Numbered from the stretch's first letter, positions 1 to 16,676 are shown. The stretch is 64,000 nucleotides of DNA from Escherichia phage vB_vPM_PD06 (NC_052653.1), one strand, 5' to 3'. Numbers and translations: made by a program. The notes: generated by a model from the sequence alone, not told the origin.

Positions 1-99
1 CAACAAATAGGATAACTATGGGGGCAATAGTATGAAAAACCATCTATTCAGATGTAAATAATTTTGCGCAATAATGGTAATATTTTTCTTGACAAGAAA

Positions 100-140
100 G
101 ATTTCTTTGTGTTCACATAGCGCCCCCTGGAAGGTGGCGC
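100..140 (+). repeat. Inverted-orientation copy of the conserved box+hairpin element
   Basis: TTCACATAG box at 112-120 followed by GCGCC...GGCGC hairpin 120-140; same motif as the elements between leftward genes but reading on the + strand. Confidence 0.3.
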
Positions 141-1011
141 ATTATGATCATCAGGGTAATTATTCACTATGTTTATTATTGGATAGCTTATATTATAGCC
201 AATGTTCCAAACATTAGCTAATAATAACGCACCGCAACAATGTAAGGGAATACAATATACCATGTATATTGTTGCGCTTGCAATTGTTGCAAGCTACATA
301 AGCACAGATAATAACTATCGGTGATGGTTATTATGTGGGGTGTGTAGTTGCGTTATTATTAGCCGCCTATGTGTCCGGCATAGGCTGCTAATGATACGCT
401 TGCGAATTATATTTCTTGTTATAATTATTGTATGAAATGATTATTTAGGTAATAGATAGTAAGGTAAAGATTAGATCATAAATAGATAGGATATTAATTA
501 TTTAGTAATGTTACTAACAATTTAATAGTTACTTTGTGCAACAATTCGATAGATTATAGTTATAGTTTTAAAGGTTAGATAGATTATATTTAGCTTGGTA
601 ATGATTTATATTAGTTATTGTTGTTTAATATAAGGTTATCAATGAGATAATAACAGTAAGTTATAAATAAAAGTGAGATAATTAGCTTTAATTTAGTTAG
701 ATAGCTTATTATTTTATATGTTAGATGGCCTTAAGTTAAGAATGATTATCATTATTACATTATTCAGTTTATTGCATAAATAATCAGCTATAAATCAGAA
801 TGATTATTATTTAAGAGGAAAGAGAAGAAAAAGGCTGTTTTTGCCAGATAGTTGCATGAAGAAATTAAAAATAAGCGGTCTAAAACACGCTGTAAGCGCC
901 TTATGATCTTCATGGTATGGTTATTCATCTGCTCCTTGATTAGCTCGATACCGCGATCTATTCACTTTTTCGGTGAACGTTTTTGATAGGTAAAAGATAT
1001 CATCTTTATTG

Positions 1012-1042
1012 AGGTAAAAAGAAAGGGCGCTTATTGCGCCCT
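1012..1042 (-). terminator. Intrinsic terminator ending the leftward early-like array
   Basis: Hairpin AGGGCGC-TTATT-GCGCCCT at 1024-1042 with A-run on + (U-run on - strand) just downstream of the stop at 1058; identical hairpin recurs at 7470-7488. Confidence 0.5.
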
Positions 1043-1057
1043 TGTGTGAAATGTTAT

Positions 1058-1441
1058 TTACTTATAAGCCGGATCGTTTGTTATATCAAGCCAATGAGCT
1101 AAATTAATTTTATTTTTTGCTTTCATTTTCTCGATCAAACGTTCGGCTAATGTTTCTGAACGAATATAAACATAATCGCTAAAATCTTGCCCGGTTTCCT
1201 CGTCGATCATCTCGCGATATTCAATTTTCCCGATAAACGCATGATTCAGCGCATAAGTTTTACCCGTGTACCAGTTGTGCAAATGAATCTCACATTTATA
1301 ATCGTCGCTATAACCTTCGGTTGTTCTAACTTCAACCAAGTCACCTTTGAACACGGATAAGCACCACATAGGATCACGATCTACAGCGCCATTAAAATCT
1401 TTACCGTTTACAGTAGCCGCCAGGTTGATGATATTGCTCAT
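1058..1441 (-). CDS. Hypothetical protein (127 aa)
   Basis: Six-frame ORF; last gene of compact leftward array. Confidence 0.6.
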   Translation of the reverse strand: MSNIINLAATVNGKDFNGAVDRDPMWCLSVFKGDLVEVRTTEGYSDDYKCEIHLHNWYTGKTYALNHAFIGKIEYREMIDEETGQDFSDYVYIRSETLAERLIEKMKAKNKINLAHWLDITNDPAYK

Positions 1442-1474
1442 GGAGATTCCTCGTTTACCGTTTAAAATTGCTTG

Positions 1475-1501
1475 CCCTACACGATAACTATAAATTAACA
1501 G
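1475..1501 (-). repeat. Box-only copy of conserved intergenic element (no hairpin)
   Basis: CCCTACACGATAACTATAAATTAACAG resembles the box CCCTATGTGATAAACTATACCAG of the element at 8907-8947. Confidence 0.3.
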
Positions 1502-1516
1502 AGGCTATAAAGCAAG

Positions 1517-1825
1517 TTATTTTTCATAGAATTTTTCTACTGTGATATTCTTCCCGGTGGGATTAGCTACTTTCAAAATTTTATCATGTACTGGACGCCC
1601 AAAAGAATAAGATCCGTATACAGTAAACCAATAATCACCGTCAGGCTGTACTATCACCGCTGCATAAGGTACGCCTTTTTCGTTATTGCTGACAGAATAG
1701 ATCACATTGCCGTTAATAGCCTCAGCGCGTTTAATTTGTTCGATCATGATATGATTCCTATATTGAGCGGGAAACCACTTCCCGCCTACGTGATAAATAA
1801 TAGTGTAAGCGTGATCCGGTGTCAA
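1517..1825 (-). CDS. Hypothetical protein (102 aa)
   Basis: Six-frame ORF in leftward array. Confidence 0.6.
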   Translation of the reverse strand: MTPDHAYTIIYHVGGKWFPAQYRNHIMIEQIKRAEAINGNVIYSVSNNEKGVPYAAVIVQPDGDYWFTVYGSYSFGRPVHDKILKVANPTGKNITVEKFYEK

Positions 1826-1961
1826 TAGGTAGAATTGTAAAGATTTGATAGTTTATACCTTTGATGTTTTGTCGTTTGATAGGTATTAGCTATCAATATA
1901 TAGCGGGGTCTTCCGGTGATTACCTCCCCCCGTCACCAGGTGCCGCCCGTTCAATAAGCAT

Positions 1962-1990
1962 AACAAAAAACAGGACAAAAACAAGCCCTG
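1962..1990 (-). terminator. Putative intrinsic terminator (weak stem)
   Basis: CAGGAC...GCCCTG stem at 1971-1990 followed on - strand by T-run (plus-strand AACAAAAAA). Confidence 0.3.
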
Positions 1991-2001
1991 TTTTGTAAAG
2001 A

Positions 2002-2205
2002 TTAGATGATCTGCATATCCTCCATGATAATTTCTAATTTCCAAACAAGATGATCTAAGCTCCCTGATAAAAATGATTCCGATACATAACCGCCATCGGA
2101 CACCGTAGCAAGGATCTCGCCATTTGCTTGCTCTTTGATTTGAACATCCAGGCGGTTAGCCTTTGCTTTATTCAGGACGGCGATCAGGCGGTTAGCTGTA
2201 GTCAT
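2002..2205 (-). CDS. Hypothetical protein (67 aa)
   Basis: Six-frame ORF; box+hairpin element immediately upstream. Confidence 0.5.
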   Translation of the reverse strand: MTTANRLIAVLNKAKANRLDVQIKEQANGEILATVSDGGYVSESFLSGSLDHLVWKLEIIMEDMQII

Positions 2206-2227
2206 GGTGTTTTCCTTCCAGTTGTGA

Positions 2228-2264
2228 GCGGCACCATTGCCGCCCTACGTGATACATCTTACAC
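2228..2264 (-). repeat. Conserved box+hairpin intergenic element
   Basis: Hairpin GCGGCA-CCAT-TGCCGC then box CCTACGTGATACATCTTACACT; on - strand reads TAAGATGTATCACGTAGGGCGGCA. Confidence 0.6.
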
Positions 2265-2289
2265 TATCCGATACATTGTGCAAGCTATT

Positions 2290-2481
2290 TTAGATCTCGT
2301 CACCTATATAATCAGATCTATTCTTTTCTGTCATACGCTTAAGCAATTTTTGCATATGGCTTATGGCTTGCAATGTATCTTCTTCCAGGCTTGAATCGAG
2401 ATAATCAGGATCATTCTTTACCTTGCTATGATTGTGATACCGCAACGCTGCTAATACCTTTCTAACTTGTTCTGCATTCAT
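2290..2481 (-). CDS. Hypothetical protein (63 aa)
   Basis: Six-frame ORF in leftward array. Confidence 0.5.
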   Translation of the reverse strand: MNAEQVRKVLAALRYHNHSKVKNDPDYLDSSLEEDTLQAISHMQKLLKRMTEKNRSDYIGDEI

Positions 2482-2630
2482 TTTTATTACTCCTTAAAAC
2501 CAGGTGCCAACCGTTTCCAATAGGTCACTGACTACCAGGACAACATTAATCAGCACATATTCAACCAGGAAGGGAATAAGCGCCAGCGTTGCTACTACGA
2601 TCCCCATTGTGATGATTACCTTTCTCATGG

Positions 2631-2915
2631 TTAGCGGTTTACCTGGGCTTTACCGTTTACGGTCATCGGTATGGCCTCAAGGTCTGGATCTTCCTTAAGG
2701 TCGCGTGCAAGCTCACCGCACCGGACACCCTCGAATCCGTAGTACTCTGTTGTGCCGTCCTGGAAAGTTTTAGCGGCAAGGCATAGGCGATAATTAACGC
2801 CGATCCGGTTTATTGCGTTGATATCGGTTAGCGTGATGGATTCTGGCAACTCATTAGCCAGTACAGGCGCGTTAATACCAACAACCAGGGCAACTACTGC
2901 GATCATCTTTTTCAT
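2631..2915 (-). CDS. Hypothetical secreted protein (94 aa)
   Basis: N-terminus MKKMIAVVALVVGINAPVLA looks like a signal peptide. Confidence 0.6.
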   Translation of the reverse strand: MKKMIAVVALVVGINAPVLANELPESITLTDINAINRIGVNYRLCLAAKTFQDGTTEYYGFEGVRCGELARDLKEDPDLEAIPMTVNGKAQVNR

Positions 2916-2944
2916 GCGTCTATCCTCTTCCTATTGCGTTTAAT

Positions 2945-2960
2945 GGGGCGTTACCGCCCC
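2945..2960 (-). repeat. GC-rich intergenic hairpin (element family, hairpin only)
   Basis: GGGGCG-TTAC-CGCCCC. Confidence 0.45.
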
Positions 2961-2969
2961 GCTTATGGT

Positions 2970-3206
2970 TTATTGATTGATGTTATGATGAAAGTTATTT
3001 TCTTCAATAGCTTTTAAAATAAAAGCCGTGATCGCTTTCGTATCTACTTGTTCGAACGTATCAGAATAAGCCCAATAATAATCATCCCCTACTTTCGGCG
3101 GGTAAACCTGGACAAGGAGATCGCCACCTGGTTGATCTATAAGCTCAACATGCAAGCCGGATGATTCAGCGGTTTTAACGGCGTTTAATACTGTTGCAAT
3201 ACTCAT
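2970..3206 (-). CDS. Hypothetical protein (78 aa)
   Basis: Six-frame ORF. Confidence 0.55.
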   Translation of the reverse strand: MSIATVLNAVKTAESSGLHVELIDQPGGDLLVQVYPPKVGDDYYWAYSDTFEQVDTKAITAFILKAIEENNFHHNINQ

Positions 3207-3226
3207 AATCTTTTCCTTTCTGATGT

Positions 3227-3242
3227 GGGGCGTTGCCGCCCC
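3227..3242 (-). repeat. GC-rich intergenic hairpin (element family, hairpin only)
   Basis: GGGGCG-TTGC-CGCCCC. Confidence 0.45.
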
Positions 3243-3250
3243 TTTGTTGA

Positions 3251-3550
3251 TTAGATCGCTGTTTCCAGTAGTTCGGCTAACGTCTTACCGCCTGATAGTT
3301 GGTCTAACGTTTGCTCTTCTGGCAAGAAATTAGCTGATATTAAACCGACTTGATTCCCTTTGTGCCAGTTAGCCTGGCGGATGATTCCATCCTTTAAAGA
3401 TTTTACCGCCATTGTGCAACCGTCGCCAAATGATTCATTTTTATGATCCATTACTTCATAAGCGCCCAGCTTGCTGCTGTTAGGCACCATTAACGCGAAT
3501 ACATCACCAACAACCAGTTTTTCTACGGTAACAATAGCGATAGTTTCCAT
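3251..3550 (-). CDS. Hypothetical protein (99 aa)
   Basis: Six-frame ORF. Confidence 0.6.
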   Translation of the reverse strand: METIAIVTVEKLVVGDVFALMVPNSSKLGAYEVMDHKNESFGDGCTMAVKSLKDGIIRQANWHKGNQVGLISANFLPEEQTLDQLSGGKTLAELLETAI

Positions 3551-3568
3551 TTTACTTTCCTCATTATC

Positions 3569-3607
3569 GGCGGCACCATTGCCGCCCTACGTGGTAAATA
3601 TTAGCAC
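3569..3607 (-). repeat. Conserved box+hairpin intergenic element
   Basis: GGCGGCA-CCA-TTGCCGCC then CTACGTGGTAAATATTAGCAC. Confidence 0.6.
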
Positions 3608-3631
3608 ACTGGCGATCTGTGTCAATACTTT

Positions 3632-4018
3632 TTATTCAATATAAATCAAATTATCTTCACCAATGTAAGCCGACACGTTCGGCATAAACTTAGCTGCATT
3701 GGTTAGGCGGTTCGCCGTGTTAGTGGTGTATATTTCAGGGCGATCCCAAAAGCCTACGCCGTGACCGTTACGGGTAAAATGTAAATCATTCCCGATCTGG
3801 TTGGCTGTTGCGCCGTCGCTCATTGCCTCAGAGATAGCGGCAAGATTAGCATTAATAAAGGCTGTTACATCCTGGGCGATCCGTTCGTCCGCGCTAGGAG
3901 AAAAATCATAATCGTCTAAGTTTTCAATAAAATTACCTTCATGATCCCTTGCTGATTCAGCAAAAATAAAGGCTTCTTTATAACCGTTGATGATTTCAAT
4001 AATCATTTCTGTTTTCAT
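3632..4018 (-). CDS. Hypothetical protein (about 128 aa; start uncertain, track ORF extends to 4105)
   Basis: Internal ATG at 4018 (MKTEMIIEI) preferred because the longer N-terminal extension overlaps a separate small ORF. Confidence 0.5.
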   Translation of the reverse strand: MKTEMIIEIINGYKEAFIFAESARDHEGNFIENLDDYDFSPSADERIAQDVTAFINANLAAISEAMSDGATANQIGNDLHFTRNGHGVGFWDRPEIYTTNTANRLTNAAKFMPNVSAYIGEDNLIYIE

Positions 4019-4067
4019 GCTGTACGCTCGACAATAATAATAGTTTGCGGGATCTCGTTTTCTACTA

Positions 4068-4229
4068 CTAACAAGGCTTTTTCTGTGTGATAGATATTTT
4101 AACACGTTGTAAAGTAGCGGTAAAATCTTTCATTTCATTATGCGCGGATTTAGTACAATGCCAGATCTCAGGTTTACCAATTTGCAAGCCGCGTAAAAAT
4201 TCCGTTTTACCTGTCTTATTCGTGATCAT
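4068..4229 (-). CDS. Small hypothetical protein (53 aa; not in ORF track)
   Basis: ATG at 4229 preceded by AAGGTG RBS; hand translation MITNKTGKTEFLRGLQ... has no internal stop. Confidence 0.3.
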   Translation of the reverse strand: MITNKTGKTEFLRGLQIGKPEIWHCTKSAHNEMKDFTATLQRVKISITQKKPC

Positions 4230-4239
4230 TTGTTTCACC

Positions 4240-4344
4240 TTAGCCGATACCGTGGGAAGATAGGATCATATTAGCCATAGTTGCAACCATTCCAACCGAT
4301 AATGCCATGCCAACTACTACAACCGTGAAAATTTTTTCTAACAT
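4240..4344 (-). CDS. Small hydrophobic peptide (34 aa)
   Basis: Track ORF 4240-4440 overlaps the element; internal ATG at 4344 has GAGGATGG RBS; MLEKIFTVVVVGMALSVGMVATMANMILSSHGIG is one predicted TM helix. Confidence 0.35.
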   Translation of the reverse strand: MLEKIFTVVVVGMALSVGMVATMANMILSSHGIG

Positions 4345-4362
4345 GATTCCATCCTCATTAAT

Positions 4363-4406
4363 GGGCGTTGCCTTATTGCCCCGCCCTATGTCGTACACTT
4401 TACCAG
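4363..4406 (-). repeat. Conserved box+hairpin intergenic element
   Basis: GGGCG...CGCCC hairpin then CTATGTCGTACACTTTACCAG. Confidence 0.55.
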
Positions 4407-4507
4407 ATCCGCGCCTGGTGTCAACAATTATTTTGTACATTCTGAGATTGTCAAGGTTTTTGATAAAACAACAGAATTGAGAGTTTTTCCCATCTTCTGA
4501 TCCTCTG

Positions 4508-4771
4508 TTAGCATACGATAGCGATCACGCCGCCACAAATAAAAGGTAAATCAAAACGGTCTAACTTGCAAGCTATTTTTAAACGAAAGGCAACATAAAA
4601 GAAAAGTTGCAAACAATCGATCATTGTGTTAGCTGTTGAAACGCTGCCAGCATTAAACACCACCACGCCCACGGCGTTAAACGTTGCGTTACTCACGAAA
4701 GCGAAAAGGCAAGCGATCACGGTGGCGATCATAATGTTGCGTTTTGTCAATCTGTAAATGATGTTTTTCAT
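4508..4771 (-). CDS. Hypothetical membrane protein (87 aa)
   Basis: Six-frame ORF; hydrophobic segments. Confidence 0.55.
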   Translation of the reverse strand: MKNIIYRLTKRNIMIATVIACLFAFVSNATFNAVGVVVFNAGSVSTANTMIDCLQLFFYVAFRLKIACKLDRFDLPFICGGVIAIVC

Positions 4772-4782
4772 TCTGTCATGTT

Positions 4783-4820
4783 GGCGGCATCATTGCCGCC
4801 CTACGAAATACATTCTACCC
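4783..4820 (-). repeat. Conserved box+hairpin intergenic element
   Basis: GGCGGCA-TCA-TTGCCGCC then CTACGAAATACATTCTACCC. Confidence 0.6.
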
Positions 4821-4840
4821 GATTTATAATTGTTGTCAAA

Positions 4841-5110
4841 CTATTTTTTCAAGCTCGACCAGTCAAAACACGGGGCGATCTCGTTAAAACTTGTGCCCTG
4901 TAAAGCACATAATTTTTTAGCAATAGCCGCCGTAACCTGGCGCTGTACGCGCGGATCTGCTACTGATTGGAGAAAGTAGGCGGTTTTATATGTGATCATG
5001 CTTTCGCCTGTTTCCTTGTTAACGTGATGCACTATTTTAGCCTTATCATCTTTTACCAGGGTGTAACCGGATTCGATGGCCTTGATTGCAACGTCCAATG
5101 ATATTTTCAT
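4841..5110 (-). CDS. Hypothetical protein (89 aa)
   Basis: Six-frame ORF. Confidence 0.6.
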   Translation of the reverse strand: MKISLDVAIKAIESGYTLVKDDKAKIVHHVNKETGESMITYKTAYFLQSVADPRVQRQVTAAIAKKLCALQGTSFNEIAPCFDWSSLKK

Positions 5111-5129
5111 GATTTACCTCTTTATTGAC

Positions 5130-5150
5130 GGCGGGGAATACTCCCCCGCC
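5130..5150 (-). repeat. GC-rich intergenic hairpin (element family)
   Basis: GGCGGGG-AATACT-CCCCCGCC. Confidence 0.45.
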
Positions 5151-5157
5151 TCATTAA

Positions 5158-5328
5158 TTATTCTTCATCGTCGCCGTTATAGTATTCAATGCCATTTTCA
5201 TCGGTTACGGTGATGTTAACACCACCGATAGTAACACGATCACGGGCAAATGTCATGGCTTCATTTAAATCTTCAGACCAAAAAATATTGTGACCTTTGC
5301 GCGATACGTAAAACATAGTCGGGATCAT
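5158..5328 (-). CDS. Small hypothetical protein (56 aa; not in ORF track)
   Basis: Hand translation MIPTMFYVSRKGHNIFW...NGDDEE with no internal stop; ATG at 5328 after AAAAGAGAAACAAATC; fills an otherwise empty gap. Confidence 0.4.
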   Translation of the reverse strand: MIPTMFYVSRKGHNIFWSEDLNEAMTFARDRVTIGGVNITVTDENGIEYYNGDDEE

Positions 5329-5351
5329 GATTTGTTTCTCTTTTGTTGTGA

Positions 5352-5393
5352 GCGGGAAACCATTTCCCGCCCTATGTGGTAAACTTTACTACG
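5352..5393 (-). repeat. Conserved box+hairpin intergenic element
   Basis: GCGGGAAA-CCA-TTTCCCGC then CCTATGTGGTAAACTTTACTAC. Confidence 0.65.
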
Positions 5394-5412
5394 TTGTTTG
5401 CGTGCTGTCAAA

Positions 5413-5697
5413 TTATTTTTTAATGTTTTGCCCTACAAAATTGATCACTTCCTTAAGCTGTCTCTCTGTCATGATCGTACCTGGTAACTCTTCTTTAATT
5501 TCTTCCGGTAAATAGATATTACCGCGCCAGGTTAACAAACAACCGTTTTGATCTTCGCAGATAGAATAAGAAAACATCCACTCGCAATCATTTTCAAGCT
5601 CCCAAAAACACAAAAAGTCTTCTTTCCCTAAGTTTTCAACGGTTAAACATAATCCGCGACGTGCTGCATAATTAGTTAGGCTTTTTGTGATTTTCAT
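5413..5697 (-). CDS. Hypothetical protein (94 aa)
   Basis: Six-frame ORF. Confidence 0.6.
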   Translation of the reverse strand: MKITKSLTNYAARRGLCLTVENLGKEDFLCFWELENDCEWMFSYSICEDQNGCLLTWRGNIYLPEEIKEELPGTIMTERQLKEVINFVGQNIKK

Positions 5698-5718
5698 GAT
5701 TTTTCTCTCTTCTGTTAG

Positions 5719-5761
5719 GCGGGGAAACCATTTCCCCGCTCTATGAGATACAATATATTAC
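5719..5761 (-). repeat. Conserved box+hairpin intergenic element
   Basis: GCGGGGAAA-CCA-TTTCCCCGC then TCTATGAGATACAATATATTAC. Confidence 0.65.
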
Positions 5762-5780
5762 TTATCAGGTGTGCTGTCAA

Positions 5781-6104
5781 TCAATAATCTTTAAGATTTT
5801 CTACATTTACAAAAGGGCGTTTATTTTCTAAGTTTTCGCCGTACCATTGCCCCATGTTGATTTCTGCGGTGCGCAACCAGGACATGCCGCGTTCTATCTT
5901 TTTGCTCGCAATGTCGATCCGGCTTTTGCATAGTGCTTTCGCTTGCAATGTAAAAACACTATTGCCCTGTAATGCTTCCAGGTCATCATGTGCAAGGCGG
6001 TATTCTTTAAAGCCTGATTCTATCATTTCAATCGCATCAAGGAAACGCGCACGATGATAGAAAAAATCAGAGTTATCCAAATAAACACCGATCACAGATT
6101 TCAT
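5781..6104 (-). CDS. Hypothetical protein (107 aa; start moved to internal ATG)
   Basis: ATG at 6104 (MKSVIGVYL) preceded by AAAAGGG RBS. Confidence 0.55.
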   Translation of the reverse strand: MKSVIGVYLDNSDFFYHRARFLDAIEMIESGFKEYRLAHDDLEALQGNSVFTLQAKALCKSRIDIASKKIERGMSWLRTAEINMGQWYGENLENKRPFVNVENLKDY

Positions 6105-6204
6105 AATTTTACCCTTTTGTTTGCGGCCTTTGCCGTTTTCAAGATATAGTTTAAAGCATAACAAAAAATTATCAAGCCTTTAAAGCGTACAACTATAAAA
6201 CCTA

Positions 6205-6324
6205 TTAAAACACAATGTATAATAACATGGCTATAGTAGCAATACAACATAAAACCATGCTTGTTTTCCTTCCTTCCTCATATGCTGGATTTATTACGCT
6301 ATACTGTACGGGAATAATTTTCAT
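6205..6324 (-). CDS. Small membrane peptide (39 aa; not in ORF track)
   Basis: ATG at 6324 after TTAAGGAAACAGC RBS; hydrophobic C-terminus CCIATIAMLLYIVF. Confidence 0.35.
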   Translation of the reverse strand: MKIIPVQYSVINPAYEEGRKTSMVLCCIATIAMLLYIVF

Positions 6325-6333
6325 GCTGTTTCC

Positions 6334-6429
6334 TTAATGTCTTAAAACGTGGTTTACAATAGAAACAAGCATACAGAAGAAAAAAGATCCTGTCAATAAG
6401 ATACCGAAAAATAAATGTAAATAGGGCAT
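6334..6429 (-). CDS. Small membrane peptide (31 aa; not in ORF track)
   Basis: ATG at 6429 after TTTAAGGAGTAAAACC RBS; MPYLHLFFGILLTGSFFFCMLVSIVNHVLRH. Confidence 0.35.
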   Translation of the reverse strand: MPYLHLFFGILLTGSFFFCMLVSIVNHVLRH

Positions 6430-6433
6430 GGTT

Positions 6434-6736
6434 TTACTCCTTAAAAAAATCATTGACAATTAAACTGATAACGCCCAGCACCAGATCACCAGGTAGCGCC
6501 GCGCTTTCGTTGTTGCTTGTTTGCACTTCCTCACTAGTACCCGCATGATAGATCGCATGGTAAGCAATAGTATAATAACCTTTCGTTATTTCTTTAAGAT
6601 TAATGATTAGCACGTTATTTGTTTCATCTTGAAACAATTTAGCGGTGATAGTATTGTTTTCTTTTACACTATCGACTTTTATTGATGGATCATTTACACC
6701 AGAAAAAAGAAAAAACGTTTTAGCTATGCCGTTCAT
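6434..6736 (-). CDS. Hypothetical protein (100 aa)
   Basis: Six-frame ORF. Confidence 0.6.
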   Translation of the reverse strand: MNGIAKTFFLFSGVNDPSIKVDSVKENNTITAKLFQDETNNVLIINLKEITKGYYTIAYHAIYHAGTSEEVQTSNNESAALPGDLVLGVISLIVNDFFKE

Positions 6737-6783
6737 GTAGTTCTCCTTTGTTGGGTGTATCTTATAACGTGCTTTCTATATTG

Positions 6784-7185
6784 TCAACCTTTTATCTCGG
6801 TACATTTTGCTAGGGTATACGTTGCAAGTGCTGACACTAGTTTTTCATTGCTACGATCTGCGGCGGTGCTGTGTACCTTTTGAATACTTTTTAGCCACGG
6901 CGTAAAATTTTGAGTCGTTAGCACACTGGTAATAATTTCACATGGTACATCTTCATTTAAGCCATTAACAATAGATTTATCTATTTTTGCCGTTAATTGT
7001 GTAACAGCACCATAAGCGATCATGTGTGAATCCTCCATGATTTCATCGGGGATCGCGTTATTAATGATCATGACGTTTTCCATTGCATCAACGGCGCTTA
7101 ATTCTGCTACTGTGGAGGATATCGCCGCGCTAGATGTTCCAACCATGCCAAAAGAGATTAAACCAGCGATCAATAATTTTTTCAT
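6784..7185 (-). CDS. Hypothetical secreted protein (133 aa)
   Basis: Start MKKLLIAGLISFGMVGTSSAA (signal-peptide-like) with GAGG RBS. Confidence 0.6.
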   Translation of the reverse strand: MKKLLIAGLISFGMVGTSSAAISSTVAELSAVDAMENVMIINNAIPDEIMEDSHMIAYGAVTQLTAKIDKSIVNGLNEDVPCEIITSVLTTQNFTPWLKSIQKVHSTAADRSNEKLVSALATYTLAKCTEIKG

Positions 7186-7193
7186 TTCTTGCC

Positions 7194-7376
7194 TCATATA
7201 TGTTTTATTGAGATTATATTGTCACTATATACAACGTTTTTCAACGTGTCAATAAAAATTTTATTGCCTTCAATCCCCAGGATCACGCCGCTAGTTATGA
7301 AACCATATTGATCACGATATCGGGCGCATAACCTTTGTCCCTGGGCTAGTGCCTTGCTTATTTCGTCTAATTTCAT
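7194..7376 (-). CDS. Hypothetical protein (60 aa)
   Basis: ATG after ACAGGAGC RBS. Confidence 0.55.
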   Translation of the reverse strand: MKLDEISKALAQGQRLCARYRDQYGFITSGVILGIEGNKIFIDTLKNVVYSDNIISIKHI

Positions 7377-7465
7377 TTTTAAAGCTCCTGTAAAGCTGTC
7401 TAACGTGGTTTATAGGCTTATCCTGGCGTTACCCTTGCCTATAAGCAACAAGCCTCTATATAAGC

Positions 7466-7494
7466 TAAAAGGGCGCTTATTGCGCCCTTTTTGT
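7466..7494 (-). terminator. Intrinsic terminator (bidirectional in form)
   Basis: AGGGCGC-TTATT-GCGCCCT hairpin 7470-7488 flanked by A-run and T-run; same hairpin sequence as at 1024-1042. Confidence 0.5.
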
Positions 7495-7631
7495 TATTCG
7501 TTCCAGTATCTTTTGCTGCTGCGATCTCTTTTTGTTTTGTTCCGCTTATCGCCTTTCTTGGTGATCTCTTCGTTCCAATCTTTACGCGCTTTATTGCGGT
7601 TGAATTTTTCGATCTGCTGTGATGCGTTCAT
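7494..7631 (-). CDS. Small basic protein (45 aa; not in ORF track)
   Basis: ATG at 7631 after GAGAGGAAAAAC RBS; MNASQQIEKFNRNKARKDWNEEITKKGDKRNKTKRDRSSKRYWNE. Confidence 0.4.
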   Translation of the reverse strand: MNASQQIEKFNRNKARKDWNEEITKKGDKRNKTKRDRSSKRYWNE

Positions 7632-7645
7632 GTTTTTCCTCTCGA

Positions 7646-8005
7646 TTACGCTACGTTATGATATTTTGCCAAAGTTACGATCATGCTTGCAATATATAAC
7701 CAATAATTTTCCCGCTCACGGGTAACGGTTGTTTCTTTGCTTGTTTCTTTTATGTACTTCCATTCAATTAATAATTGATCGATCTCGTTATAATTAAAAG
7801 CGATATTGATATCTGACGGTAAACCTTGTAACCAGCTTTTAACAGCTTGTACCATATTGTTATTATAACGATCACGATTAGATTGATACCAGTATTCAGA
7901 GTTAAAACGGCGCATCAGTTCGGTGATTTTTTCTTTTTCGGTTGTAGTACCATCAAAAGAAATAGCCGACAAAATGTAAGTTTTAATTGCTTTTACTGAT
8001 TTCAT
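7646..8005 (-). CDS. Hypothetical protein (119 aa)
   Basis: Six-frame ORF. Confidence 0.6.
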   Translation of the reverse strand: MKSVKAIKTYILSAISFDGTTTEKEKITELMRRFNSEYWYQSNRDRYNNNMVQAVKSWLQGLPSDINIAFNYNEIDQLLIEWKYIKETSKETTVTRERENYWLYIASMIVTLAKYHNVA

Positions 8006-8025
8006 AATCTTATCTCTTTATTGAT

Positions 8026-8046
8026 GGCGGGAAACCATTTCCCGCC
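8026..8046 (-). repeat. GC-rich intergenic hairpin (element family)
   Basis: GGCGGGAAA-CCA-TTTCCCGCC, same hairpin as at 5352 and 8907. Confidence 0.55.
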
Positions 8047-8091
8047 GTTGTTGTTACTTTACTTATAAATGATGCTACTGTCAAGCGGATA

Positions 8092-8262
8092 TTATTTATT
8101 TTTTAACGTTAATGTTCCCAGCTTATCAGCGTGACGCAGACCAGGAAAGATCCATTTTCCTGATTCATCTTTCACCGGGGCTTTAAGCGTAGCGCCCAGG
8201 TTGGCGGCGTTAACTTTACGTGCAACGTTGCGAGCGGCTTCACGGGTGGCGAAAGTGATCAT
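8092..8262 (-). CDS. Small hypothetical protein (56 aa; not in ORF track)
   Basis: Hand translation MITFATREAARNVARKVNAANLGATLKAPVKDESGKWIFPGLRHADKLGTLTLKNK; RBS AAGAGAAGAGGAAA. Confidence 0.4.
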   Translation of the reverse strand: MITFATREAARNVARKVNAANLGATLKAPVKDESGKWIFPGLRHADKLGTLTLKNK

Positions 8263-8285
8263 GATGTTTCCTCTTCTCTTTGTTA

Positions 8286-8307
8286 GGCGGTGGGCTATTC
8301 CACCGCC
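8286..8307 (-). repeat. GC-rich intergenic hairpin (element family)
   Basis: GGCGGTGG-GCTATT-CCACCGCC; compensatory changes keep the stem. Confidence 0.5.
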
Positions 8308-8352
8308 TTAATGAATATAGTTTACTTTATTTTACCAGGTTTGCAAGTAGTT

Positions 8353-8568
8353 TTATGAAATAATTGTCAAAGTAAAATCATAATCTTTTGACAATTTATA
8401 TTGCACCTTGTTACCGTATATGTCACCTTTACGTAAAGATCCACGGATACCGATAACATCCTTCACGTCTTTTAAATTTTTCACGCCTGTAATGTCTTTG
8501 TTGAAATACTCGTCATCTGAAAATAAAACTTGACTTGCATTTTTTAACAGTGTGCGGATATTAGCCAT
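8353..8568 (-). CDS. Hypothetical protein (71 aa; start moved to internal ATG)
   Basis: Track ORF start overlaps the element; ATG at 8568 (MANIRTLLKN) has GAGAGAG RBS. Confidence 0.5.
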   Translation of the reverse strand: MANIRTLLKNASQVLFSDDEYFNKDITGVKNLKDVKDVIGIRGSLRKGDIYGNKVQYKLSKDYDFTLTIIS

Positions 8569-8588
8569 TTTGATAATCTCTCTCACTA

Positions 8589-8629
8589 GGGGCGGCACTA
8601 TTGCCGCCCTATGCATTACATTTTACTGA
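8589..8629 (-). repeat. Conserved box+hairpin intergenic element
   Basis: GGCGGCA-CTAT-TGCCGCC then CTATGCATTACATTTTACTGA. Confidence 0.6.
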
Positions 8630-8655
8630 TTTTAGTTATCTTGTCAATATTATTT

Positions 8656-8883
8656 TTAGTTTAATTGATCCAGGCACAACAAGCGATCAACATTTAGATC
8701 GGTTAGGCTAATCGTTGGCACCTGGTAGGATTCGATGTACTCAACGCTCGACCATTGCCCGAAATTAGCGACCGCCCAGCTATTCAAGGAAGAGTGAAGA
8801 TCATCGCCTTTCTTCTCGGTGATAACTGCTACTACCTGGGAGATTCCAACCGTACCGGATACGCGAACAATAACGATAGCCAT
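8656..8883 (-). CDS. Hypothetical protein (75 aa)
   Basis: Six-frame ORF. Confidence 0.6.
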   Translation of the reverse strand: MAIVIVRVSGTVGISQVVAVITEKKGDDLHSSLNSWAVANFGQWSSVEYIESYQVPTISLTDLNVDRLLCLDQLN

Positions 8884-8906
8884 AATGATAACCTTTCTTT
8901 GATTTG

Positions 8907-8947
8907 GCGGGAAACCATTTCCCGCCCTATGTGATAAACTATACCAG
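8907..8947 (-). repeat. Conserved box+hairpin intergenic element
   Basis: GGCGGGAAA-CCA-TTTCCCGCC then CTATGTGATAAACTATACCAG. Confidence 0.65.
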
Positions 8948-8974
8948 ATTAAAAAACGTTGTCAACTGTTTTTA

Positions 8975-9214
8975 TTACATTCCTACCATAGCGGCACGGA
9001 TTGCAGTTTTACTATACTTGAAACCATCAGGTGTATGAGTGATTCCGTCCTGTTTTAATCTGTAGCACATTAGATCCGCCGCTTTATCTTTATTGCCACA
9101 CTCATTTATTAAACCTACAGCGTATAAGTATAACGATTCATCGTTATTAATCCAAAGGCTTACATTCCAATGAGTTTTGTTTTTGTGACCGTTGTACATT
9201 TTAGATTTAGCCAT
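8975..9214 (-). CDS. Hypothetical protein (79 aa; start moved to internal ATG)
   Basis: ATG at 9214 (MAKSKMYNGHK); longer track ORF overlaps the element. Confidence 0.5.
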   Translation of the reverse strand: MAKSKMYNGHKNKTHWNVSLWINNDESLYLYAVGLINECGNKDKAADLMCYRLKQDGITHTPDGFKYSKTAIRAAMVGM

Positions 9215-9237
9215 GATGTTAATCTCTTTTTCAGTGA

Positions 9238-9278
9238 GGCGGGAACTATTCCCGCTCTCTATGTAATACATTTTACGC
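9238..9278 (-). repeat. Conserved box+hairpin intergenic element
   Basis: GCGGGA-ACTA-TTCCCGC then TCTCTATGTAATACATTTTACGC. Confidence 0.6.
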
Positions 9279-9303
9279 TTTTTATTCGTGCTGTCAATGC
9301 TTT

Positions 9304-9669
9304 TTATAAATCTTTTTTACGTTTAACATCGCTTGCATGACTGTATACAGCGATCCCATTATCACGGCAAAAACGGGAAAGATACGCGCCGCGTGAAAAC
9401 TCTTTACCTTCCATATTAACAACCTTGCTAAACTCTTCCAGGGCAACGGTATCAAAATGATCACCATAACCATATTGAAACGGAACGTTAACGACTTCAA
9501 TCAGTTTACCGCCGATCTCAACGTCAACCATCAAAGAGAAATAAGTATTACCATACGACTTTTGAAACCAGCGACGGGCGCTAATATGTACCGCTTCAAT
9601 GCTGGATAGCTCAATTTTAGCAGTGTTAGCCAGGGTAGCATAAGCAGAAACATTGATATTTTTAGCCAT
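9304..9669 (-). CDS. Hypothetical protein (121 aa)
   Basis: Six-frame ORF with consensus sigma70 promoter upstream. Confidence 0.65.
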   Translation of the reverse strand: MAKNINVSAYATLANTAKIELSSIEAVHISARRWFQKSYGNTYFSLMVDVEIGGKLIEVVNVPFQYGYGDHFDTVALEEFSKVVNMEGKEFSRGAYLSRFCRDNGIAVYSHASDVKRKKDL

Positions 9670-9706
9670 GATTTTATTCCTTAGTAACGCTTTAATTTAT
9701 ATAAGC

Positions 9707-9734
9707 ATTATAGCTTACTGATTTCAGGTGTCAA
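9707..9734 (-). promoter_or_regulatory. Consensus sigma70-type promoter (leftward)
   Basis: On - strand: TTGACA (9734-9729), 16-bp spacer, TATAAT (9712-9707). Confidence 0.6.
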
Positions 9735-9756
9735 GTGATTTTTTATTTCACTTTAT

Positions 9757-9792
9757 GGGGCGTTGCCCCGTTCTATGTGGTATATATTACGG
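9757..9792 (-). repeat. Conserved box+hairpin intergenic element
   Basis: GGGGC-GTT-GCCCC then GTTCTATGTGGTATATATTACGG; lies upstream of the sigma70 promoter, i.e. at the 3' side of the preceding gene. Confidence 0.55.
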
Positions 9793-9815
9793 TGCTTGTT
9801 TGCATATGTCAAGCC

Positions 9816-10370
9816 TTACACAATGCAATTTTCATAATTTTTTAAGGCTTGTCTTTTTTCCTCTTCCGTCGGCATGTATGGCTGGATCTCTTCCTCTTCC
9901 AGGGTAGGCATGATTTCTTCCTCTTCCTCCTGGTCGCCCTGGTCTTCCTCTTGCGCTATGGTAACAAGTTTATTGATCTTCTCCTGGGCTTTAATTAGTT
10001 TTGCATCTAGCACCATTTTAGCGGTGTTGTATACAGTCCATGCCATGCGCTTTTCTGCGTATGCCTTATCTAGTGCGGCTAATTTAGCGGGATACTCTTC
10101 CAACACCTTAAAAGCCGGATCAATGCTGTACAAGGGATTATTTTTAGCGTCATCGCTTGGATCTGCGGCGCTTGCAATGTCAGCGTTACCATTCGCCAGC
10201 CATCCAGGGCGAACGGATCTCGTCCTGGTGTTGCCGTTGCTCTTTGCCGCTCGATTTCCTATCTGCTCCCCGCTATACCCTACCATGTGATCGATCATGT
10301 CATCTGGTATTATGCGCGGATCATTTGCGTCATGCTTTACCCAGGACTGGATCACATATTCACGCCCCAT
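9816..10370 (-). CDS. Hypothetical acidic protein (184 aa)
   Basis: Six-frame ORF; Glu-rich C-terminal region. Confidence 0.65.
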   Translation of the reverse strand: MGREYVIQSWVKHDANDPRIIPDDMIDHMVGYSGEQIGNRAAKSNGNTRTRSVRPGWLANGNADIASAADPSDDAKNNPLYSIDPAFKVLEEYPAKLAALDKAYAEKRMAWTVYNTAKMVLDAKLIKAQEKINKLVTIAQEEDQGDQEEEEEIMPTLEEEEIQPYMPTEEEKRQALKNYENCIV

Positions 10371-10371
10371 G

Positions 10372-10632
10372 TTAGTTCGCCTCTTCTGTTAGTAGTTTAC
10401 ATACCTTAAACATGCTTGCCGCGTCTTTTGACGGTAGCCAGCCTATCCGATACACTCCAGGATCTGGATTAGTTACATCAGTCAGTTGCGCGTTACGATG
10501 ATTAAAAATAGTGTAACCGCCGCCAGCACGGGGATAAACATTATCTTTAAACCTGATAGCGTATCTCGCCAGGTCGAACGTTGTAGCATGTTCAAAAGCG
10601 ATCACATTATCAAAAACTTTTAGAAAAAACAA
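10372..10632 (-). CDS. Hypothetical protein (86 aa; TTG start)
   Basis: TTG start at 10632 preceded by GGGGAGGATAATC RBS. Confidence 0.55.
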   Translation of the reverse strand: MFFLKVFDNVIAFEHATTFDLARYAIRFKDNVYPRAGGGYTIFNHRNAQLTDVTNPDPGVYRIGWLPSKDAASMFKVCKLLTEEAN

Positions 10633-10668
10633 GATTATCCTCCCCAGCGTTTAAAGCCCGTTGCACGG

Positions 10669-10782
10669 TTATTTTTTAACTCTCGTTTTAGTCTCTTGCA
10701 ACGGTTTACAAGTGCAAACCGTGCCGGAGTCGTAACAGTAGCGCCGTTTTTGGTGTGGATACTCATTACATATTGTTTCATA
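10669..10782 (-). CDS. Small basic peptide (37 aa; not in ORF track; weak)
   Basis: ATG at 10782; MKQYVMSIHTKNGATVTTPARFALVNRCKRLKREVKK; weak RBS. Confidence 0.2.
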   Translation of the reverse strand, partial: YETICNEYPHQKRRYCYDSGTVCTCKPLQETKTRVKK

Positions 10783-10790
10783 AAGTTTTA

Positions 10791-10835
10791 CCCTATGTAA
10801 GCGGGAACAATTCCCGCTTTAAGATAGCTTATCAG
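10791..10835 (-). repeat. Variant box+hairpin element (hairpin splits the box)
   Basis: CCCTATGTAA + GCGGGAACAATTCCCGC + TTTAAGATAGCTTATCAG. Confidence 0.45.
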
Positions 10836-10859
10836 GTTTTAGTGCAATGTCAACCGTTT

Positions 10860-11222
10860 TTATTCGTAAATTTTACCGCTTTCTACCCATACCATAACAC
10901 GGCGCATGTTATCCCATGCATCTTGTCGCAGATTTAAGGCATGCAATTCTTCCGTGGTGCTCATACCTGGAACGGGCTTGCTATATGTTACAAAGAGATC
11001 GCCAGCATATTCATAAGCCAGGGTAAGATCACATTGAATCATCTTTTTAATCATAGCATCAAGCATCATATTAGCGGCATGTTGATCACGTTTCAGCGGT
11101 AACGTTGCGATCTGTGTGCGATAGCTTTCGATCCGTGCATCCACTGCATCACGCGAAAGGTTTTTCACGTCATCGCGGAAAGATACCAGATTAAACATGA
11201 TAGTATTGATTTGCTTGCTCAT
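10860..11222 (-). CDS. Hypothetical protein (120 aa; start moved to internal ATG)
   Basis: ATG at 11222 (MSKQINTIMFN) with AAGGG RBS; longer track ORF overlaps the element. Confidence 0.55.
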   Translation of the reverse strand: MSKQINTIMFNLVSFRDDVKNLSRDAVDARIESYRTQIATLPLKRDQHAANMMLDAMIKKMIQCDLTLAYEYAGDLFVTYSKPVPGMSTTEELHALNLRQDAWDNMRRVMVWVESGKIYE

Positions 11223-11244
11223 TGCATTACCCTTTTTTTGTTTT

Positions 11245-11287
11245 GGCGGGGAAGTATTCCGCCGCCCTATGTGATACATCTTATCAG
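11245..11287 (-). repeat. Conserved box+hairpin intergenic element
   Basis: GGCGGGG...CCGCC hairpin then CTATGTGATACATCTTATCAG. Confidence 0.6.
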
Positions 11288-11325
11288 TTTAAAAAACGTT
11301 GTCAAGAATATTTTTAAAAATAATT

Positions 11326-11607
11326 TTAGCTGTATGATCCGCACCGCTCGCAATAGTGATCATCGTCGTCATCTGCCACCTGGCTGATAAAATGATCTAC
11401 CTTTGTTTTTAGGTTATTGTAATTGTTTTCTACTTCCTTTAGTCGTTCCTGGTAGTATTCCAGGGCTTCAATATACGCCGCCTCTTCTGTTTTTTCACGC
11501 ATAGCTAAATTCATGCCGCGCGTATCATCATACAGCCAAAAGCCATCGGTGCACTCACTCATTGAAAGAGTAGGGCTTAACTCTTTATGACTAATTACCT
11601 TGCTCAT
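11326..11607 (-). CDS. Hypothetical protein (93 aa)
   Basis: Six-frame ORF; C-terminal CERCGSYS. Confidence 0.6.
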   Translation of the reverse strand: MSKVISHKELSPTLSMSECTDGFWLYDDTRGMNLAMREKTEEAAYIEALEYYQERLKEVENNYNNLKTKVDHFISQVADDDDDHYCERCGSYS

Positions 11608-11617
11608 AGTGTGCGCC

Positions 11618-11722
11618 TTATAGAATGATTGAAATAATAACTGACACTACAATCCAAAAGGGAACGGCAAGAATGATAGCGTTAATCGTTCCAACCGTCA
11701 AGCTATTCTCTTTCTTGATCAT
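11618..11722 (-). CDS. Small hydrophobic leader peptide (34 aa; not in ORF track)
   Basis: MIKKENSLTVGTINAIILAVPFWIVVSVIISIIL; first ORF downstream of the leftward sigma70 promoter. Confidence 0.3.
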   Translation of the reverse strand: MIKKENSLTVGTINAIILAVPFWIVVSVIISIIL

Positions 11723-11850
11723 CGTTATCAACCTTTTATAAGTAATGTTATTGTGACGGTGGATTGTGGAGATCCTCACCTTTGCCCGTCTTGCATTGCA
11801 CCCGCCTATTGTTTATTGTCGTTGTGCCTTGCCCCCCCTCGACAAGATGA

Positions 11851-11879
11851 ATACTACGCTACCAGGTGAGGAACGTCAA
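11851..11879 (-). promoter_or_regulatory. Sigma70-type promoter driving the leftward array
   Basis: On - strand: TTGACG (11879-11874), 17-bp spacer, TAGTAT (11856-11851). Confidence 0.5.
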
Positions 11880-11989
11880 CCATTTTTTTAATCTTTTTTC
11901 ATTTCTTTTTTGCTTGCTATATATGAAGGAAACGGCTATCATCTTTCTACCGCGCCAACCAGGGCGCACAACAAAGAAAGGGCGATACC

Positions 11990-12256
11990 ATGACAAATAC
12001 TCCTTTACATCTCATGTACTCACTGGGCTGGCAAGGCGGCACGGTGCACCAGGTAGCAAGCGCAACGGGCTTAAAGGTTGAAACCGTTCTCAACCTGGGC
12101 GATCATAAGGTGGAAGAGATAGATCATTTTGATACGTTCGCAAATGGTTATCTATGGGCTTGCAGTGGCGGCGGGGAAAGCAAGATCCCACCAGGGGCGC
12201 GGGGCGACATGTATTTTTGGTTAGGTGTCCTATCCTGGCAAGAAAACAAAAAATAA
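11990..12256 (+). CDS. Possible small protein (88 aa), uncertain
   Basis: Six-frame ORF in the divergent control region; weak RBS; overlapping alternative frames. Confidence 0.2.
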   Translation: MTNTPLHLMYSLGWQGGTVHQVASATGLKVETVLNLGDHKVEEIDHFDTFANGYLWACSGGGESKIPPGARGDMYFWLGVLSWQENKK

Positions 12257-12258
12257 TC

Positions 12259-12287
12259 TTGACAAGCCCAGGGATCGGGCTTATACT
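12259..12287 (+). promoter_or_regulatory. Consensus sigma70-type promoter (rightward) with no obvious ORF downstream
   Basis: TTGACA (12259-12264), 17-bp spacer AGCCCAGGGATCGGGCT, TATACT (12282-12287). Confidence 0.55.
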
Positions 12288-12520
12288 GTTTTACATACAG
12301 AAGAGGAAACGCCACCCCCACGGCGTAAAGGCGGGGCTAACATACCAGGGGGGGCACTGGTTGGAAGGTTGATCGCCGGTAGCTCGTCTAAAATAAATTT
12401 GTAAAGAAATGTAAAGATAAAAATAATCGCTTGCTTTTGTTGTTGGTTATGCTATTCTTATTGTATGGCGAGGGGACACGGGAGCGCGAGACAAACACCG
12501 CCCCTGCGCGTTATTCTGTA

Positions 12521-12631
12521 AATGAGAAAAATTCTCATTTGCTAATGATTCTCATTCTCTTAGTGAGAATGCTTATCATTTACATAATTAAATGATAATG
12601 ATTCTCATTTACAAATGAGAATGATTATCAT
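12521..12631. repeat. Cluster of three palindromes sharing a GAGAAT/ATTCTC core
   Basis: AATGAGAA-aaa-TTCTCATT (12521-12539); CATTCTC-ttagt-GAGAATG (12553-12571); ATGATAATGATTCTCAT...ATGAGAATGATTATCAT (12592-12631). Confidence 0.6.
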
Positions 12632-12655
12632 ACGCATACCCATAAAAACACGAAA

Positions 12656-12857
12656 TTGAACTTTTCATTTTTGATTTTTCTACGGAAAAAGGCAAAAAAA
12701 CTTTAAATAAACTGGGGAATTTTTAAAAAATTGAAGTTTTCATTTTCAAAATCTGGATAGAAATACGTACAAAAACTTTAAATAATTTTGACCAAACTTG
12801 AACTTTTCATTTTCAAAATTTGTACCCAAAAATCTGTAAAAACTTTAAATAATTTTG
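12656..12857. repeat. Three tandem ~67-75 bp direct repeats
   Basis: Units start at 12656, 12731, 12798; each TTGAAC/G-TTTTCATTTTCAAAAT...AAAAACTTTAAATAATTTTG. Confidence 0.6.
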
Positions 12858-13071
12858 TACTTTTTATAAAAATGATTTTACTGTTCTGTTATAAGTAGTA
12901 GTTAAGAGATAGTATGTCTTTTAAAGATCAGATACCATAGTCCAACAAACAAATTAAATACTTTATTAACAGGGTGTAGAATACTACTTACTCTGGATAT
13001 ACTGTGCAGAGGGTGAATTTCCGTACATGAAACCCACACCCCTTTTTATAAAAATAAAAATTTTCAAAATA

Positions 13072-14817: not shown

Positions 14818-14891
14818 CTACTACTCCTCTTATTAAATCTGGCATTAATGCAAGAAAACCCGCCGAAGCGGGTTTTTATTTGCTGGCTTAC

Positions 14892-16019: not shown

Positions 16020-16030
16020 TTTAACCCCTT

Positions 16031-16468: not shown

Positions 16469-16482
16469 TCTTTATTCCTCAC

Positions 16483-16656
16483 TTACCTTTTAAGGAAACC
16501 AATCATAATGAAGAACCACATCCAGGCAGGAGAGATAATAAAGCCAAAGAAACCGCAAATAACCGCTTTCTTAATCTCTTCCAGACAACCCACCAGGAAA
16601 AGAACGAGTGAGACTACAATCCAGATAGCCATAAATACTGTAACAAAGAAACTCAT
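16483..16656 (-). CDS. Small membrane protein (57 aa; not in ORF track)
   Basis: ATG at 16656 after GGGAGAAAGG RBS; MSFFVTVFMAIWIVVSLVLFLVGCLEEIKKAVICGFFGFIISPAWMWFFIMIGFLKR. Confidence 0.45.
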   Translation of the reverse strand: MSFFVTVFMAIWIVVSLVLFLVGCLEEIKKAVICGFFGFIISPAWMWFFIMIGFLKR

Positions 16657-16676
16657 ACCTTTCTCCCGTCTGTATT

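Follow-up and report, generated by a model that had tools for sequence, protein, structure and literature searches.

Short hydrophobic open reading frames in the putative early region of Escherichia phage vB_vPM_PD06

Short hydrophobic ORFs and their coding status

A stretch of 64,000 nucleotides (nt) from Escherichia phage vB_vPM_PD06 (NC_052653.1), hereafter the window, was analyzed with regard to a set of short open reading frames (ORFs) encoding hydrophobic peptides of fewer than 60 amino acids (aa). The window belongs to Justusliebigvirus, a genus of phi92-like myoviruses in Stephanstirmvirinae, with 94-95% identity to many genomes of this genus; its positions 3500-19800 were 94-97% identical to dozens of Escherichia phages of the genus, with Phapecoctavirus as more distant kin. 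The genes were oriented on the minus strand up to about 18.3 kb and on the plus strand beyond.

A preliminary description of this DNA had listed six such ORFs, here called A to F, and their coordinates and strands proved to be correct. Five were located on the minus strand, namely A (4240-4344, 34 aa, MLEKIFTVVVVGMALSVGMVATMANMILSSHGIG), B (6205-6324, 39 aa, MKIIPVQYSVINPAYEEGRKTSMVLCCIATIAMLLYIVF), C (6334-6429, 31 aa, MPYLHLFFGILLTGSFFFCMLVSIVNHVLRH), D (11618-11722, 34 aa, MIKKENSLTVGTINAIILAVPFWIVVSVIISIIL) and E (16483-16656, 57 aa), and one on the plus strand, F (18883-19029, 48 aa). The ribosome-binding sites ascribed to them were found in every case, as each of the six started with ATG and carried a Shine-Dalgarno (SD)-like site approximately 5-9 nt upstream: the context was GAGGATGG for A, TAAGGAA for B, GGGAGAAAGG for E and GAAGGGGA for F, and the motif was AAGGAG for C and a weaker AAAGG for D. 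Their hydrophobic nature was also evident, the best 19-residue Kyte-Doolittle window scoring 1.9-3.0 in all six.

In a blind scan, the 367 frames of 28-59 aa that start with ATG on either strand of the 64 kb were filtered for an SD motif placed 4-11 nt before the start and for a 19-residue window with a hydropathy of 1.9 or higher. This filter left seven frames, exactly the six ORFs A to F together with a minus-strand frame at 2494-2607, whereas thirty mononucleotide shuffles gave 0.3 +/- 0.5 frames. It was confirmed that the micro-ORF set exceeds chance expectation. All seven frames sat within the first 19.1 kb. The additional frame, picked up by the scan in a 37-aa form and absent from the preliminary list, is called G here; it likely extends over 2494-2628 (minus strand), encoding 44 aa (MRKVIITMGIVVATLALIPFLVEYVLINVVLVVSDLLETVGTWF, with the start MRKVIITMGIVVATL). 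G matched phrog_16005 over 44/44 positions (E 1.3e-28) and was 68-95% conserved in three Phapecoctavirus genomes, and its hydropathy predicted one transmembrane (TM) helix.

The frames were intact throughout the relatives compared, in 16/16 genomes for A, 10/10 for B along with distant homologues, 11/11 for D, 7/7 for each of E and F, and 10/10 for C, in this case close relatives only. The ORFs had further been said to fill otherwise empty gaps. Indeed, C and B take up most of a 329-nt gap (6104-6434), E covers 174 of the 208 nt of its gap, and F exactly fills a gap of 143 nt, with the upstream TAA abutting its ATG and an ATGA overlap with the next gene downstream; F is translationally coupled on both sides. 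We regard A, B, D, E, F and G as very probably real protein-coding genes. Judged from the sequences, the coding status appears strong for A, B and D, good for E and F, and weakest for C. Clear evidence for genuine genes was obtained for five of the six ORFs originally listed, with C being probable only.

Gene A consisted of exactly 34 codons in all of its 16 genomes, including UPEC06 (71% aa) and AlexBoehm (53% aa), an rV5-like phage of another subfamily. The variable columns were distributed as 8/4/18 over codon positions 1/2/3, a bias not seen in control frames, and the ratio of non-synonymous to synonymous substitution rates (dN/dS) was 0.22-0.29. Full-length A was detected by tblastn in 226 phage records across Stephanstirmvirinae and Vequintavirinae, and the peptide matched phrog_14631 at 34/34 profile positions (E 1e-21). 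It was predicted to form one TM helix and carries the conserved C-terminal motif ATM(A/S)NMILSS(H/N)GIG. The DNA directly upstream (4345-4424, minus strand) is an early promoter cassette composed of TTGACA-N16-TAAAGT, CATAGGGCGGGG...CGCCC and the SD context given above, in which a GC-rich hairpin opening with CATAGGGCGG lies between the promoter and the SD. Because this complete cassette is located directly upstream, the start of A was assigned to 4344. Longer versions of the gene were rejected as over-extensions, both a 66-aa ORF (4240-4440) that runs through the A promoter and a 52-aa coding sequence (CDS) annotated in some relatives (e.g., Schickermooser_00283; the calls at 2172-2330 in L005 and 1467-1625 in L008), the GTG start of which lies inside the promoter and hairpin of A.

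The next start lies 10 nt beyond A. The 71-aa gene following A was present in some relatives and missing in phi92, arall and the relative L007, in which A remains, and the idea that the two form an obligate pair was rejected for this reason. As a separate observation, this 71-aa gene (4068-4229 in the window, minus strand) corresponds to phrog_5988 and was conserved even in rV5-like phages. In the window it was frameshifted, with one A missing from the CAGAAAAAAGCC homopolymer (T-run at 4078-4082); the loss may be an error of sequencing, or the gene may be a true pseudogene.

Gene B matched phrog_10979, a family named 'membrane protein', at profile positions 6-39 of 39 (E 5.6e-8). One homologue occupies the same place in Phapecoctavirus (Schickermooser_00277, 39 aa), and another was found in the unrelated 52-kb Rosemountvirus phages (BP63 gp05, 41 aa, annotated as 'membrane protein'). 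The motif VxYxVxNPAxxEG was invariant across the three homologues (V6, Y8, V10, N12, P13, A14, E17 and G18) ahead of a C-terminal hydrophobic helix, B being laid out as 20 polar N-terminal residues followed by the predicted TM helix. Only eight columns varied among the ten close relatives with the intact frame, and this variation was hence uninformative.

B is overlapped by a 49-aa ORF ('B-prime', 6101-6250, minus strand) which several GenBank relatives annotate in place of B (e.g., bas62_0127 and bas61_0129). The DNA at 6105-6204 (minus strand) is the promoter and 5' leader of the gene at 5781-6104, with TTGATA-N16-TAAACT and the -35 element at 6175. The relatives have TTGACA here in 8 of 9 cases and TAAAAT in 6-7 of 9 (K34 in six; L007 frameshifted), and both changes are non-synonymous in the 49-aa frame. 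This frame was disrupted in L007 by a 1-nt insertion, and no PHROG match, no homologue and no SD at a usable distance was found for it. The promoter consensus of the relatives, the frameshift, and the lack of SD and homologues led us to reject the 49-aa ORF as the true gene in place of B, and its GenBank calls are probably mis-annotations of promoter DNA.

Gene D was intact in the genomes of two genera with the same ATG and a length of 31-35 aa, even as its flanks were unrelated between the two genera on both sides. Its dN/dS was 0.05-0.29, and the variable columns were distributed as 12/8/19 by codon position. D was present in 111 records and is annotated as bas61_0110 and Schickermooser_00262; no family was found for it in PHROG v4. 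The SD of D in Phapecoctavirus is AAGAGG. The peptide consists of 23 conserved N-terminal residues, including MI(K/N)K(E/G)NSLTVGTIN, followed by a predicted C-terminal TM helix. A promoter-like match lacking a hairpin was located inside D at 11701-11673; the possibility that D is non-coding on account of this inner site was rejected by the selection and the cross-genus conservation.

Substitution counts by codon position were too few for purifying selection to be assessed in B (2/2/4), C (1/1/3), E (0) and F (2/3/4). As the variation in E and F is uninformative, the support for these two genes comes from PHROG membership, gene packing and the weak homologue of E. E matched phrog_22950 at 57/57 positions (E 6.9e-40), and the same sequence, named 'hypothetical protein', was found on 504 contigs; the relative of E in Phapecoctavirus (58 aa) was a weak match of 26%. 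F matched phrog_27111 at 48/48 positions (E 1.1e-35), belonging to a cluster of 27 members, all named 'hypothetical protein', and was found on approximately 90 contigs.

Promoter cassettes, neighbouring genes and annotation

Strict TTGACA-N16/17-TAnnnT promoters within 1-18300 numbered 17 on the coding (minus) strand and one on the other strand, compared with 0.29 in shuffles. Nine of the 17 adjoined a hairpin, forming cassettes in the order of TTGACA-N16/17-TAnnnT, 6-8 nt, a C(A/G)TAG(G/A)GCGG...CCGCC hairpin and SD-ATG, one of which is the cassette directly before A. Promoters with a hairpin were located on the minus strand, for example, at 11305, 9297, 8965, 8647, 5780, 5411, 4839, 4424 and 3625, and the gene content between the cassettes varied among relatives. 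The view of this DNA as an early region agreed well with these data, as the 17 promoters are hallmarks of early transcription by the host RNA polymerase; the cassettes appear to support early expression by this enzyme. An Rfam scan of 1-20000 detected no RNA family.

The promoter-early stem-loop (PeSL) of T4-type phages combines a sigma-70-like promoter with a stem-loop in hyperplastic regions (PMC2839356, PMC4122927). The cassettes of the window resemble PeSL in having a strong promoter and a GC-rich stem-loop, repeated between small non-essential genes of a hyperplastic region, the gene content of which differs among close relatives. They differ in belonging to another phage lineage and in the position of the hairpin downstream of the -10 element in the 5' leader. 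In the rV5 genome, the equivalent region holds 88 ORFs, which are mainly small (PMC3606486).

The only neighbours with a recognised function were a CapR-domain/T5orf172 endonuclease (13624-14817, minus strand) and an AAA+ ATPase (14892-16019, minus strand; PF00004, phrog_2376), both downstream of E. The ATPase is called 'FtsH-like protease' in EmilieFrey, and no protease domain was matched. Directly after E lies a gene for a 145-aa membrane protein (16031-16468; phrog_3054), with a weak match to the membrane-protein family phrog_1486. Another ORF, at 4508-4771 on the minus strand, encodes up to 87 aa and is strongly hydrophobic, with relatives annotating 64-74 aa from a start further downstream; it adds one more membrane protein to this early cluster. 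A sub-60-aa gene of a different kind was located at 7494-7631 (minus strand), encoding an extremely basic peptide of 45 aa (MNASQQIEKFNRNKARKDWNEE...) that is not hydrophobic, corresponds to phi92 gp237 and is conserved in Phapecoctavirus.

The ORFs A to F had been presented as unannotated, which is true only of the 60-aa track in which they were sought. In phi92, E and F are already listed as gp219 and gp211, respectively. The BASEL phages JohannJBalmer and EmilieFrey have annotated CDSs for A (bas62_0133), C (bas62_0126) and D, and end-to-end matches to PHROG families were obtained with A, B, E and F. When G is included, PHROGs exist for five of the families, and relatives carry GenBank CDSs for all of them; A, B, C and D are missing from the phi92 RefSeq record. 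The PHROG families 14631 (A), 10979 (B), 22950 (E), 27111 (F) and 16005 (G) comprise the same proteins or direct homologues, and are function-free entries. The micro-genes are known in the sense of being already catalogued as hypothetical proteins.

Membrane character and alternative explanations

The interpretation that we favour is that the ORFs encode early inner-membrane peptides that modulate larger membrane proteins, a statement that, taken as a whole and including the reality of the genes, is considered moderately probable. Their earlier characterisation as membrane peptides is consistent with uncharged stretches of bilayer length in A to E and halves of approximately 17 residues in F. 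That they are single helices held for A, B, C and D (4/6), in which, as in G, one stretch of 19-20 residues is free of D, E, K, R, N, Q and H, but not for the other two. E contains two uncharged hydrophobic stretches of 25 residues (1-25 and 31-55) with EEIKK between them, and is likely a two-helix hairpin. F has two hydrophobic halves split at K25 and perhaps forms such a hairpin as well.

One alternative, which appears unlikely, is that the peptides are subunits or anchors of phage membrane assemblies, or else holin/antiholin-like or depolarising peptides. The position of E directly ahead of the membrane protein of phrog_3054 and the ATPase, the FtsH-like annotation of the latter in EmilieFrey, and the occurrence of more hydrophobic proteins in the early region, such as that encoded at 4508-4771, are in line with an assembly of this kind. 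However, the putative E homologue in Phapecoctavirus lies about 1 kb from the ATPase, which is preceded there by a gene for a signal-peptide protein, and a conserved module of E, the 145-aa membrane protein and the AAA ATPase was rejected because the linkage is lost in that genus. Moreover, none of the peptides gave a Pfam match, holins included, and no recognisable lysis gene was seen beside any of them in the stretches examined.

Several points weigh against the favoured interpretation, the reality of the genes included. T-rich sequence encodes hydrophobic residues by default, and membrane insertion and topology are predictions from hydropathy. Scans of all peptides against Pfam-A, NCBIfam and PADLOC at E up to 1 detected no family. 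A HMMER search of 1.84 billion representatives with B as the query yielded nothing besides B and two long proteins that were spurious matches, and a search of a large protein database with E returned only near-identical sequences. E was identical in six relatives, with 0 variable columns, and F, intact in six relatives, had nine variable columns with little informative variation. The AlphaFold2 model of E from the single sequence was one long continuous helix with a predicted local distance difference test (pLDDT) score of 88. In the literature, no functional studies of these genes and no transcript, ribosome-profiling, proteomic or genetic data on them were found; a search for expression data on the early genes of Justusliebigvirus, Phapecoctavirus and rV5 likewise gave none. 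As for C, it was intact in 53 records, which were all from Justusliebigvirus and all at least 90% identical, only five columns varied, and neither a PHROG family nor a homologue beyond this one genus was found. The DNA of C is T-rich, and its counterpart in the sister genus is a promoter spacer (6334-6429 versus 3848-3944 in L005), the Schickermooser equivalent being the ordinary promoter-hairpin cassette of its B homologue.

The observations on C lend some weight to a second alternative, quite improbable overall and realistic for C only, in which the ORFs are non-coding by-products of T-rich promoter or leader DNA that happens to stay open. C contains a promoter-like site without a hairpin (6368-6396, minus strand, TTGACA-N17-TATGCT), and in the alignment this TATGCT site faces the TTGCAA-N16-TATATT promoter upstream of the Schickermooser B homologue. 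In addition, about 10% of the short ATG frames in the window reach the hydropathy threshold, and the annotated 49-aa ORF overlapping B is an example of such an artefact. For A, B and D, on the other hand, this explanation is excluded by in-frame purifying selection, as measured in A and D, and by a length conserved across genera and subfamilies. Even C has features that speak against it. The ORF spans its gap exactly, with its ATG 4 nt past the upstream stop and its end 9 nt short of the B ATG, and a perfect AAGGAG stands at the ideal spacing of 7 nt upstream of the start. In four of the nine relatives (L014, L003, L008 and L004), the embedded -35 hexamer has decayed to TTGTCA or TTATCA through changes that are either synonymous or Thr to Ser in the C frame, and the site lacks the hairpin of the real cassettes. 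The product of C was predicted to have one TM helix. We consider it fairly probable that C is a translated gene, and it may have arisen recently from regulatory DNA. In a protein collection, C shared a cluster with an unrelated protein of 100 aa encoded by the gene upstream of it (6434-6736), a grouping that looks like a database clustering artefact; an IMG/VR scan with this neighbouring 100-aa protein found one locus only.

It is very improbable that the ORFs matter through being translated and not through their peptides, serving as leader or coupling ORFs that open up mRNA structure and bring ribosomes to the following gene (A to the 71-aa gene, C to B, and F to a 142-aa gene), for although the next starts are tightly spaced (10 nt for A, 9 nt for C and the ATGA overlap for F) and A is placed after a 5' hairpin, the dN/dS of about 0.25 and the invariant motifs in A, B and D point to selection on amino acids, A is kept where its downstream partner is deleted (phi92, arall and L007), and coupling needs no consistent TM-helix composition.

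Proposed role of the peptides

If the peptides are early inner-membrane modulators as favoured above, their genes, arranged in operons behind host sigma-70-type promoters, would probably give products in the first minutes of infection. These products of 31-57 residues, with one helix (A, B, C, D and G) or two (E and possibly F), are predicted to be inserted in the inner membrane. Tail anchoring would be expected for B and D, whose short conserved N-termini would face the cytoplasm, and A and G may adopt an N-in/C-out orientation. Since the conservation in A, B and D is found beyond the helix or at its edge, specific partners would be expected rather than generic membrane damage. The genes also behaved as modules, with A kept without the 71-aa gene and the neighbours of D differing between two genera; the conserved residues off the helix, together with the movement of the genes as single modules, suggest specific binding to membrane proteins early in infection. 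Each of these small peptides might then modulate a larger membrane protein, for which a host transporter, a divisome or envelope component, a membrane-bound defence protein and the injection route of rival phages are candidate targets. They may be dispensable accessory factors of takeover or exclusion, exchanged among phages as modules of one gene each.

Small early membrane proteins of phages include T4 Imm and Sp, which function in superinfection exclusion, and SPO1 gp56, which blocks cell division. The small membrane protein PhiNM1 Gp11 also blocks cell division, and provides a precedent with a specific target (PMC11237401). The peptides of the window may be likened to these four proteins in being short, membrane-embedded, placed under early host-type promoters, dispensable, and encoded in clusters of tiny accessory genes. 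They differ in being shorter (31-57 aa) and in having no sequence similarity, and the analogy is a functional one only; in the Pfam-A, NCBIfam and PADLOC scans, no peptide matched T4 Imm-type or other named superinfection-exclusion, holin or toxin families.

In bacteria, the small membrane regulators AcrZ, MgrB, MgtS and KdpF tune a larger membrane protein, and the type I toxins TisB, Hok and Ldr depolarise the membrane. Both groups resemble the present peptides in size (20-60 residues) and in their one TM helix. No homology to the bacterial proteins was found, and the window genes have no evident antisense RNA or antitoxin context. The extramembrane motifs of A, B and D further argue for partner binding over the pore formation of type I toxins.

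On these analogies, the role in host takeover or superinfection exclusion suggested in the preliminary description is plausible. The modulator mechanism, considered by itself, is put forward tentatively, at somewhat less than an even chance. Two more specific readings are rather doubtful: that A, with its fixed length in the 226 records and the near-invariance of its helix end and tail (ATMxNMILSSxGIG), specifically inhibits or hijacks a conserved inner-membrane protein of E. coli, and that C is a young gene that arose within the Justusliebigvirus lineage atop the promoter spacer driving B in the sister genus. If the former were true, A would be a new phage-derived handle on an envelope target, and if the latter were true, the 96 nt of C would be, or would once have been, promoter and coding sequence at the same time.

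The finding of these micro-genes leaves the current understanding unchanged. It does show that some seven real genes within 19 kb of this phage go unseen when a cutoff of 60 aa is applied. Public annotation is inconsistent in the phi92-like group, and its correction would help pangenome and PHROG-type resources. The by-products of the analysis were the missed gene G, the recurrent mis-annotation of the 49-aa ORF, the recurrent over-extension of A and a possible overlap of promoter and ORF at C. Little attention has been paid to small membrane peptides in the early programmes of phages, and A and B, which are widely conserved, would be sensible first candidates for functional work.

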